DNA from: Escherichia coli
GTDB taxonomy: Bacteria > Pseudomonadota > Gammaproteobacteria > Enterobacterales > Enterobacteriaceae
Strand: one strand, 5' to 3'
Length of the DNA stretch: 64,000 bases
NCBI RefSeq assembly: GCF_001677475.2
Contig: NZ_CP015229.1
A program made the position numbers. Position 1 is the first letter of the stretch, and each line of letters opens with the position of its first letter. Positions 21,001-24,000 of the stretch are shown piece after piece.

Positions 21001-24000
21001 CTGAACTCACGTTTTCTGAAGAGGCCGCTTTAGTAACTTCAGAAGGCGCATCTTTTTTCACCGCTGTTGGCGCGTTATCGTTGTTGTCGCACCCTGCCAG
21101 CGCCAGCATTAGCATGCAGGCGGCTACGCGTAACTTTTTCATTTTTCATCCCTGCCACAATGGCCCGTTAGCAACGTCGAATAATTATTATGCGTGAGAA
21201 TTTACGTTATGTAATTCAGTATCACGCCCATACAATCCGAATTTTAGTGAGAATTGTGGCTCAGACAGCCAAATCAGCCTCTTTTGCTTGTCGCCTTTCA
21301 CTAAACATCCGACAATTTAGCCTAACCCCGGCAAAAATGGAGATGCCTATGTCCACGACATGGTTTGTAGGAGCCGACTGGCTCGCCGAACATATTGATG
21401 ACCCGGAAATTCAGATTATCGATGCCCGCATGGCGTCGCCTGGACAGGAAGATCGTAACGTTGCTCAGGAGTATCTGAATGGACATATTCCCGGCGCAGT
21501 GTTTTTTGATATAGAAGCGCTTTCTGATCACACTTCCTCGCTTCCGCACATGCTGCCGCGCCCGGAAACGTTCGCCGTGGCGATGCGTGAATTAGGCATT
21601 AACCAGGATAAGCACCTGATTGTCTATGACGAAGGTAATCTTTTCTCAGCCCCACGAGCATGGTGGATGCTGCGCACCTTTGGTGTAGAGAAAGTGTCGA
21701 TTCTGGGGGGTGGACTTGCAGGCTGGCAGCGCGATGATCTGCTATTAGAAGAAGGCGCAGTAGAGCTGCCGGAAGGAGAGTTTAACGCCGCGTTTAATCC
21801 TGAAGCCGTGGTGAAAGTCACCGATGTGTTATTGGCAAGCCATGAAAATACGGCGCAAATTATTGATGCCCGCCCGGCTGCACGTTTTAACGCAGAAGTT
21901 GATGAGCCTCGCCCAGGTTTACGTCGCGGACATATTCCCGGTGCACTGAATGTTCCGTGGACGGAACTGGTGCGCGAAGGCGAACTAAAAACGACCGATG
22001 AACTGGATGCGATATTTTTTGGTCGCGGCGTCAGCTATGACAAACCAATTATTGTCAGTTGCGGCTCTGGTGTAACAGCAGCCGTGGTTTTGTTGGCACT
22101 CGCGACGCTGGATGTGCCAAACGTGAAACTGTACGACGGCGCATGGAGTGAATGGGGCGCACGGGCAGATTTACCGGTTGAGCCATTGAAATAAGCTTTT
22201 TACAGGCAATAAAAAACCGCCGAATTTGAACTGACCCCATAATGTTGGACGGTTTATATTAAGCGGCTATCAGGGCCTGGGTTCGGTACTCTACCGGACT
22301 CAGGCCTTTCAGTTTCTGTTTTATTCTTTCATGGTTGTAATAGTGGATGTAATTATCGATAGCCATGCGCAACTCGCTGATATTCTTGTGTTCCATCAGG
22401 TAAAAACACTCAGATTTCAGCGTGCCGAAGAAGCTTTCCATCACCGCATTGTCATGACAGTTCCCCTTCCTTGACATGCTCTGTTTCAGACCAGCCTCCT
22501 TAAGCCGGTTCTGATAATGCGCCATCTGATATTGCCAGCCCTGATCTGAGTGGAGCAGCGGGTATTCGTCTTTACCCAGTACAGATACAGCCTTCAACAG
22601 CATGTCATCCACCATCGACAGAAGAGGACGGGACGCCATCTGATACGCAACTATTTCTCCGTTATACAGATCCAGAACGGGGGACAGATACAGTTTTTCT
22701 CCGCTGATTTTAAATTCCGTGACATCTGTTACCCACTTCTGGTTGGGCTTATCCGCACTGAACTGCCGGTTCAGCACATTACCCGCCACTTTCCCATACC
22801 GGCCTCTGTAAGAGTTGTATTTCTTCCTTCTGATACAGCAGGTTAAATCTAACGCCTTCATTAACCTCTGAACCTTTTTATGGTTCAGTAAGCTTCCTTC
22901 CCGGCGGATAGCCAGCGTGATTCGCCTGTATCCATACCGTCCTTTATGTTTATGGAACAGCGTTAAAATCTGCCGCTTATCATCGGCATATTTGTCTGGT
23001 TTTTTACCGCTCGCCAGTTGCCAGTAGAACGTACTTCTCGCCAGCCCTGCCGCTTTTAACAAGCGCGCAAGAGGGAAGTCCGGCCTTAACTCATTCACGA
23101 TCTGCGTTTTATCCCGCGTTTTGACGTGCTTTTTTCCCTGAGCAAGGCCTGCAACTTTTTTAGATAAGCCACTTCAACACGCAGTTGTTCAAGTTCCTCT
23201 CGTTCATCATGGTTAAGAGGAGCCTGTAAAGAAGGTGCCGGGTTATTTTCAGGGCGTTCTGGCATCGTTTTTCTCCCGCGTCGGCTGTCAGTGAGGGCTT
23301 CTAATCCCCCTTCATCATACAGGCGTTCCCACAGAAGGACCGTGGAGAAAGCCGGAATAGTGAATTTTGCACAGACTTCGCGAACAGACAACCGGTGCTC
23401 ACGCATATGCAGGATAACGGACTCTTTAAAGACGGGAGAATAGGCGAAATGCCGGGTGGTAAGTCCGGCTTCGCCATGAAGCTTCCAGGCAGCAGTCCAC
23501 TTACGAACGGCACTGTGATCGATACCAAAACGCTTTGCAGTCGCTTTCTGCCCTTCCATGCCGGAAAGATAGTGCTGCACAACCTCAAGCTTAAAGCTGA
23601 GAGAATATTTACTCATAAAAAACTGCACCTTACTTCGTTGAGTGTCCAACTTTTGGGGTGCAGTTCAAATTTGGCGGTTTTTTATTGCTGGTCTGGTTCG
23701 CGGCCTTTCCAGCAGGTTGACTTGTGTTGCCGGAGCAACGCAGGCACCCCACAGTGCTTGCTATCGCGGCAATATCGCCAGTGGTGCTGTCGTGATGCGG
23801 TCTTCGCATGGACCGCACAATGAAGATACGGTGCTTTTGTATCGTACTTATTGTTTCTGGTGCGCTGTTAACCGAGGTAAATAATAACCGGAGTCTCTCC
23901 GGCAACAATTTATTGGTGGTTAACAACCTTCAGAACAGCAGGTAAGCCCGAATGCCGCCCTTTGGGGCGGCATATTTTAGATTATCCGGTTCTGTTTAAA

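Follow-up and report, generated by a model that had tools for sequence, protein, structure and literature searches.

The 64,000-nucleotide stretch of the Escherichia coli contig NZ_CP015229.1 (RefSeq assembly GCF_001677475.2) that we analyzed, hereafter the window, carries an insertion sequence (IS) of the IS3 family within a transcription terminator shared by sseA and the small RNA (sRNA) gene timR. Is this copy still able to transpose, or is it the relic of a former element? A first-pass annotation made from the sequence had judged it probably transposition-competent rather than a relic, and our analysis bears this out. We consider it highly probable that the element is a structurally complete, transposition-competent copy of ISEcB1, which belongs to the IS150 group of the IS3 family. 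The copy retains both ends, a target-site duplication, OrfA, the fusion transposase OrfAB, a frameshift heptamer with a stem-loop, and the catalytic DDE(K) residues; every sequence requirement of an active IS3-family element that we tested was present, from which the copy is predicted to be active. The finding is ordinary, because ISEcB1 and its programmed frameshift are both already described in RefSeq and ISfinder. The main use of an intact copy of a known IS lies in annotation and in assessing the potential of a genome for IS-mediated change.

Identity and integrity of the ISEcB1 copy

The element is a complete ISEcB1 of 1441 bp with the ends TGAACTG...CAGTTCA (Table 1). In a megablast comparison with 5,426 complete E. 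coli genomes, it matched ISEcB1 with 99.9% identity across 1441 nt, and the matched features were annotated as [quoted passage not shown]. The copies of the E. coli B strains REL606 and BL21, annotated as ISEcB1 in RefSeq, were identical to the window copy at 1439 of 1441 nt, which places it above the full-length nucleotide identity of >95% used in ISfinder-style assignment to a known element.

The empty site of K-12 (GCAATAAAAAACCGCCGAATTTGGCGGTTTTTTATTGC), a contiguous hairpin at the place where the window carries ISEcB1, fixed the boundaries of the element. A perfect AATT duplication was found on both sides, in agreement with the 3–4 bp duplications of the IS3 family, and the TG...CA ends of the family are present in the left inverted repeat (IRL; TGAACTGCACCCC...) and the right inverted repeat (IRR; ...GGGGTCAGTTCA). 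The two inverted repeats are imperfect relative to each other and unchanged relative to the reference copies; the tip of the IRL is nearly identical to that of IS1397. The inverted-repeat search initially gave a longer, 45-nt pair (22206–22250 with 23644–23688), which suggested a 1483-bp element. We rejected these boundaries because the outermost 21 nt at either end represent the halves of a pre-existing sseA/timR terminator hairpin that is contiguous in K-12.

The two reading frames, described as uninterrupted in the first-pass annotation, proved to be so: orfA encodes 173 amino acids, the orfB frame is open, and neither contains a premature stop. They overlap by 79 nt (23173–23095), in the arrangement of two overlapping open reading frames (ORFs) that characterizes the IS3 family. 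The orfA product carries helix-turn-helix (HTH) DNA-binding domains, and its C-terminus, the LKKL region, aligns with the end of IS150 InsA. The exact OrfA sequence was present on at least 1000 public contigs and is the same as that of the widespread ISEcB1 OrfA. The orfB frame matched the rve integrase core (5.6e-25, Pfam), and the 452-amino-acid OrfAB matched the NCBIfam model NF033516 (IS3 transposase) with 410 bits, compared with a cut-off of 160, over profile positions 2–369 of 369.

The catalytic DDE triad, likewise noticed at first sight, was located at D298, D358, and E394, accompanied by K401. The spacing of 60 residues between D298 and D358 and of 36 residues between D358 and E394 corresponds to the DD(35)E arrangement with the additional K. 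All four residues align residue for residue with those of IS150 InsAB, and the three acidic residues coincide with D, D, and E(Q) in the alignment to a retroviral integrase (PDB ID: 6VOY). The alignments revealed neither premature stops nor the loss of a catalytic residue, the two defects that had been named beforehand as speaking against a functional copy.

Only two of the 1441 nt differ between the window copy and the REL606/BL21 copies. The C>T change at IS position 318 (window 23350) is silent (A89), and the A>G change at IS position 969 (window 22699) replaces K307 with E. Since approximately 80 related transposases have E more often than any other residue at the corresponding position, we rejected K307E as a disabling mutation. 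E307 is also present in copies of strains 510016 and 19SZHZ869Rt, and three insertion sites other than that of the window carry it. The relatives, these copies at other sites, and the unchanged inverted repeats argue that E307 is harmless, as far as such comparisons can tell. Decay of ISEcB1 was seen at the site between yfbM and nuoN, where individual copies carry an internal stop (strain D2), a truncation by IS1 (strain PK8276), or a change of the catalytic E to V (strain P0007); the window copy is free of such decay.

Proposed frameshift heptamer and downstream stem-loop at the orfA/orfB overlap

The first-pass annotation had placed a slippery A-AAA-AAG heptamer in the overlap of orfA and orfB. 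The motif is indeed there, but the 79-nt overlap contains two AAAAAAG heptamers, and only the upstream one (heptamer 1, 23161–23155) is both in phase and conserved. Its end lies one base outside the interval originally given, which stopped at 23160. Heptamer 1 reads cuA AAA AAG in the orfA frame, the X XXY YYZ phase of IS3-family frameshift sites, and in the alignment it occupies the same UAU CUA AAA AAG (Y-L-K-K) position as the heptamer of K-12 IS150. Conservation was assessed in relatives with 46–84% amino acid identity, found at 80 loci in a scan of 100,044 species-representative genomes; among the approximately 50 examined for the heptamer, nearly all (about 45) had AAAAAAG or AAAAAAA in phase at the corresponding position. 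The motif as such occurs in the window at the level expected by chance (17 matches vs 15.1 ± 3.6 expected), so the signal lies in its position, strand, phase, and conservation. Fusion of the two frames at heptamer 1, with the expected junction peptide ...AYLKKVAGLAQGKK... (AYLKKVAGLAQGK), yields the deposited ISEcB1 transposase of BL21(DE3) (CBY77859.1), save for K307. The models of the Prokaryotic Genome Annotation Pipeline (PGAP) put the shift at the preceding codon (AYPKK), a matter of annotation convention.

The closest experimentally characterized system is IS150 (K-12 insJ/insK), the prototype of the group, which has the same architecture, identical DDE motifs, and A AAA AAG at the identical Y-L-K-K position. 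Amino acid identity over OrfAB is 47.8%, whereas nucleotide identity reaches approximately 67% in parts only. High-level -1 frameshifting at the equivalent site is established for IS150 (Vogele et al. 1991, as cited in PMC4433286), and by homology OrfAB of ISEcB1 would be produced in the same way.

A search for a structure 3' of the heptamer, which had been proposed as a check, revealed a stem-loop of the IS150 type. The ISEcB1 stem (GCCUUGCUCA/UGAGUUAAGGC) is homologous to that of IS150 (GCCUUAGCUC/GAGCUAAGGC) and lies 5 nt after the heptamer, within the 5–7 nt typical of the IS150 group; it differs in being bulged and in enclosing a loop of approximately 45 nt, compared with approximately 29 nt in IS150. 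The stem encloses the end of orfA, and in the single-sequence fold the second heptamer falls into its loop. In an alignment of 43 sequences, 91.5% of the cells of the helix (23149–23139/23093–23082) were paired, compared with at most 47% when the partner was slid by one to three columns, and compensatory changes were found in 4 of the 11 stem pairs. The observed covariation score, percentage paired, and count of double-changed cells were each matched by none of 500 shuffles, whereas the counts of pairs and of pair types were matched by 44 and 10 of the 500, respectively. RNAalifold independently recovered the helix. Because both arms are coding, their conservation by itself is a weak signal, and the compensatory changes are the relevant one. 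Folding was by plain minimum free energy, a method that does not reach pseudoknots. Taken together, the conserved in-phase heptamer and the covarying stem-loop define the frameshift cassette of the IS150 group cleanly by comparison.

By homology with IS150, IS911, and IS3, some ribosomes translating orfA would slip by -1 on heptamer 1, stalled by the stem-loop, and produce the 452-amino-acid OrfAB, and the remaining ribosomes would terminate and release OrfA as a regulator. OrfAB would bind the TG...CA inverted repeats and excise the copy as a figure-of-eight and then as a circle (copy-out, paste-in), followed by integration with a 3–4 bp target duplication. The window copy would in this way have integrated into the hairpin loop of the bidirectional sseA/timR terminator and duplicated AATT. 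IS911 and IS3 belong to other IS3 subgroups, and their stimulators are a three-way junction with an upstream Shine–Dalgarno (SD) sequence in IS911 and a pseudoknot in IS3. Both share family-level features with ISEcB1: OrfA and OrfB are accompanied by an OrfAB made by -1 frameshifting on A AAA AAG, the transposase is of the DDE type, and the elements have TG...CA ends and 3–4 bp duplications (PMC4433286, PMC3299598).

A second RNA structure was predicted at the 5' end of the element, where the IRL tip GAACUGCACC folds back onto the SD region GGUGCAGUUU, which is followed by a U-run and then the orfA ATG. The hairpin has a free energy of -20.6 kcal/mol (z = -3.3), and none of 200 shuffles was as stable. 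The same arrangement exists in IS1397. Its presumed function could be to block translation of, or to terminate, transcripts reading in from outside, for example from timR, the terminator of which is split by the element.

Table 1. Coordinates of the ISEcB1 copy, its functional features, and the interrupted terminator in the window
Feature	Position	Strand	Remarks
ISEcB1 element	22227–23667	-	Boundaries fixed by K-12 empty site
Target-site duplication AATT, IRL side	23668–23671	.	K-12 empty site is CCGCCGAATTTGGCGG, with AATT in single copy
Target-site duplication AATT, IRR side	22223–22226	.	K-12 empty-site comparison
IRL, TGAACTGCACCCCAAAAGTTGGAC	23644–23667	-	Same as in reference copies
IRR, reverse complement TGAACTGACCCCATAATGTTGGAC	22227–22250	-	
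5' fold-back hairpin	23620–23666	-	IRL tip (23666–23657) pairs with SD region (23629–23620)
orfA, 173 amino acids + stop	23095–23616	-	ATG 23616, TGA 23097–23095; Pfam HTH_28, 1e-23
orfB frame (-1 relative to orfA)	22259–23173	-	HTH_21 and rve integrase core; stop TAA 22261–22259
Heptamer 1, A AAA AAG	23155–23161	-	Codons L152-K153-K154; proposed -1 frameshift site
Heptamer 2, AAAAAAG	23129–23135	-	Out of phase for orfA, in phase in orfB frame
Stem 5' arm, GGCCUUGCUCA	23139–23149	-	5 nt after heptamer 1; fold, IS150 homology, covariation
Stem 3' arm, UGAGUUAAGGCC	23082–23093	-	Right after orfA stop codon; fold, covariation
Catalytic D298, motif WVTDVT	22724–22726	-	Aligned with IS150 and 6VOY
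Catalytic D358, motif HSDQG	22544–22546	-	Aligned with IS150 and 6VOY
Catalytic E394, motif AVMESFF (AVMESFFGTLK)	22436–22438	-	Aligned with IS150 and 6VOY
K401	22417–22415	-	Seven residues after E394
Left half of sseA/timR bidirectional terminator hairpin, GCAATAAAAAACCGCCG	22206–22222	.	K-12 empty site
Right half of the same hairpin, TGGCGGTTTTTTATTGC	23672–23688	.	K-12 empty site

Mobility of ISEcB1 and competing explanations

Of the 5,426 complete E. coli genomes, 90 contain ISEcB1, as a rule in a single copy. Recent mobility of near-identical copies can be seen in the E. coli B lineage. The REL606 and BL21(DE3) copies have the same 1441 bp, inverted repeats, orfA/orfB layout, and annotated programmed frameshift as the window copy, and BL21 and its derivatives possess a second copy, lacking in REL606 and other B strains, in the same sseA/timR hairpin as in the window. 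In BL21(DE3), this copy (2517831–2519313) has the opposite orientation to the window copy and the duplication AATG/AATT. Its flank reads GAATG directly before the IRL where GAATT would be expected, and the extra G matches the GCATG that precedes the IRL in the copy between yfbM and nuoN. A 3-bp duplication with one nucleotide carried over from the donor would produce such a flank and would imply transposition within the E. coli B lineage. These data suggest that the BL21 hairpin copy transposed within the laboratory lineage and that the same hairpin was hit independently in the window. Derivation of the window copy by inversion of the BL21 copy was rejected: the BL21 copy has the extra G and K307, whereas the window copy has a clean AATT and E307. 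An independent insertion is the more parsimonious explanation of these differences.

Further insertions with clean duplications were found between fumA and fumC in strain 19SZHZ869Rt (CCGA) and in a second timR-like hairpin in strain 510016 (TTTT), giving clean duplications at four or five sites in total. For yfbM-nuoN and fumA-fumC, other genomes contain the uninterrupted sequence that we had reconstructed as the empty site. A metagenome scan for additional ISEcB1 sites returned two contigs, both at the known yfbM-nuoN site. The BL21(DE3) assembly CP081489 shows ISEcB1 in five places. The one that we inspected (NZ_CP081489.1, 4476418–4477858) has a 16S rRNA gene on one side and an IS421 copy on the other and lacks a target duplication; it is probably an assembly artefact and was not used. 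Hybrid flanks were observed in two strains. In 510016 (loci L002 and L005), the copy between yfbM and nuoN shares the 7 nt adjoining its IRL with the flank of the second copy of that strain, and the copy of HCM-26C-1 (locus L100) combines the left flank of one timR hairpin with the right flank of another. Such flanks suggest that copies or hairpins have recombined or undergone gene conversion.

Several observations weigh against a transposition-competent copy. The 64-kb window contains a single ISEcB1 copy. In other genomes, most copies share one site, between yfbM and nuoN (duplication CATG), a pattern that looks like vertical inheritance, and ISEcB1 appears to be a low-activity element. A study of the long-term evolution experiment (LTEE; PMC7881107) has no ISEcB1 movement in its tables for 50,000 generations and labels the REL606 copy "incomplete", which conflicts with the intact state of that copy as read here (1441 bp, both inverted repeats, CATG duplication, and intact ORFs). 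The evidence for mobility is drawn from other, near-identical copies, and the effect of E307 on activity was judged by comparing sequences. The ISEcB1 stem contains one bulged U and one G·U pair, and its single-sequence fold is modest (z = -2.2 for a 75-nt fragment; not significant for a 102-nt fragment).

The copy might therefore be intact in sequence and yet effectively silent, a recently arrived or vertically inherited passenger with a negligible transposition rate. Rare target sites, tight control of the transposase (through low frameshifting or through the fold-back hiding the ribosome-binding site), or a weakening effect of E307 could be the cause. We regard this explanation as unlikely. 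In its favor are the single inherited site of most E. coli copies, the decayed copies found there in D2, PK8276, and P0007, and the absence of tabulated movement in the LTEE study; the gain of a copy by BL21 relative to REL606 and other B strains speaks against it. Rarity of targets would agree with the window, where the target motif AAAAACCGCC...GGCGG has no other intact occurrence, and tight control would agree with the stable hairpin over the SD sequence in read-through transcripts. The 99.9% identity between dispersed copies argues for recent movement. A weakening E307 is countered by the presence of E307-variant copies with clean duplications at several separate sites and by E being the family-typical residue at this position.

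The reading of an intact, transposition-competent copy places the frameshift at heptamer 1. That OrfAB is instead made at heptamer 2, or by transcriptional slippage on an A-run, is very unlikely. Heptamer 2 is a second AAAAAAG in the overlap, and fusion there would also give a protein of 452 amino acids (...LLREKKHVK...), but this fusion is absent from the public records, in contrast to that at the first site, which is the one used in the deposited ISEcB1 transposase and in the PGAP models. In the orfA frame heptamer 2 reads GAA AAA AGC, with an A-site tRNA-Ser that would be unable to re-pair. An A-run at this place is retained in only the two closest relatives (loci L011 and L058) and is absent from most others, in contrast to the near-universal heptamer 1. 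We rejected heptamer 2 as the frameshift site on its phase, its conservation, and its location within the loop that the conserved stem encloses; no structure follows it at a suitable distance. An A6 run is short for efficient transcriptional slippage. Heptamer 2 sits 26 nt downstream of heptamer 1, and ribosomes slipping by -1 once more there would terminate after approximately seven codons; heptamer 2 might, for example, damp OrfAB output.

That the element is a relic with disabling changes invisible to ORF inspection can practically be dismissed, since its sole pointer is the "incomplete" label of the REL606 copy, itself intact, and the alignment already contradicts it, as the window copy is full length, has lost nothing from either inverted repeat or from the duplication, and carries only two substitutions, neither of them disabling.

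Terminator-like hairpins as targets and the insertion context

All ISEcB1 sites with a clean duplication that we examined consist of the loop of a AAAAAACCGCC-loop-GGCGG hairpin with a 3–4 bp duplication. These sites comprise the window, yfbM-nuoN, fumA-fumC, and the second timR-like hairpin; the comparison drew on loci L001, L002, L004, L006, and L100. Insertion into hairpin loops is a property of IS1397 and ISKpn1, which the window copy shares. The inverted-repeat tips of these two elements (TGAACTGCACCCCAAA[T/A]GTTGGACA) are almost the same as those of ISEcB1, and IS1397 has the same fold-back of the IRL onto the SD region ahead of the orfA start and inserts into extragenic hairpin loops with a 4-bp duplication; the IS1397 copy that we examined lies in the loop of a palindromic unit (PU) with a TTTA duplication. 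IS1397 and ISEcB1 have only 46% amino acid identity, and their targets differ. The specificity of IS1397 and ISKpn1 for the loops of PUs, also termed repetitive extragenic palindromic (REP) sequences, is documented (PMC1525189 and its references 9, 11, and 12), and experiments have shown that their transposase dictates target choice (Wilde et al. 2003, as cited in PMC1525189). At the sites examined here, ISEcB1 was not found in REP/PU sequences; its targets are terminator-like (AAAAAACCGCC-loop-GGCGG with a T-run) and consist of an A-run, a CCGCC stem, the loop, GGCGG, and the T-run. IS150 inserts at many kinds of sites in the LTEE (PMC7881107), whereas the ISEcB1 sites seen here were all hairpin loops.

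Hairpin loops were also frequent among the targets of more distant relatives. We analyzed 35 insertions with clean duplications (loci L014–L090) and scored whether the duplication lay in the loop of a hairpin of at least 6 bp in the reconstructed empty site. This was the case for 24 of the 35 (69%), compared with 11% of 700 control positions from the same loci (Fisher p = 4e-14), and several of the 11 misses look like failures of the strict criterion. Most of the target hairpins carry an A-run and/or a T-run and resemble intrinsic terminators. The hosts of these relatives include Acinetobacter, Cupriavidus, Halomonas, Herbaspirillum, Burkholderia, Ensifer, and metagenome-assembled genomes of Clostridia.

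We tentatively propose, as a possibility rather than a probability, that ISEcB1 and a broad IS150-group clade with TGAACTGCACCCC... ends insert specifically into the loops of intrinsic-terminator-like hairpins, a general target rule that may be undescribed; the clade may span Gammaproteobacteria, Betaproteobacteria, Alphaproteobacteria, and Clostridia. The searchable literature yielded no description of terminator targeting by ISEcB1 or the IS150 group; ISfinder and TnPedia lay outside this search, and we do not claim novelty. If the rule holds, the REP/PU targeting of IS1397 and ISKpn1 would extend to terminators generally, a niche that spares genes but splits terminators, here the one shared by sseA and the TimR antitoxin sRNA. 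A general preference of this kind would explain how ISEcB1 is tolerated and would make its target sites predictable, along with polar effects on neighbors such as sseA and the timR/timP toxin–antitoxin locus.

The interrupted hairpin terminates both sseA, on the plus strand with its stop at 22194, and the TimR sRNA, which K-12 encodes on the minus strand; the element lies within the region annotated as timR in K-12. A timR remnant and ryfA/timP follow beyond the right half of the hairpin; ryfA/timP (Rfam RF00126) is intact at 23693–23978 with 263.7 bits. A scan of the region for sigma-70-like promoters gave nothing above chance. The segment 23668–23978 of the window represents a single timR/ryfA unit, compared with approximately 486 bp more in K-12, where a second hairpin and a second timR-like copy are present. 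The housekeeping genes next to the element (window 23668–31000), which include sseB, pepB, and the isc/hsc genes, are only approximately 98.3% identical to the best match among the 5,426 complete E. coli genomes, so that the source is a lineage missing from this set, or a Shigella or another unsampled Escherichia. The exact arrangement of the window was likewise found in no genome of the set.

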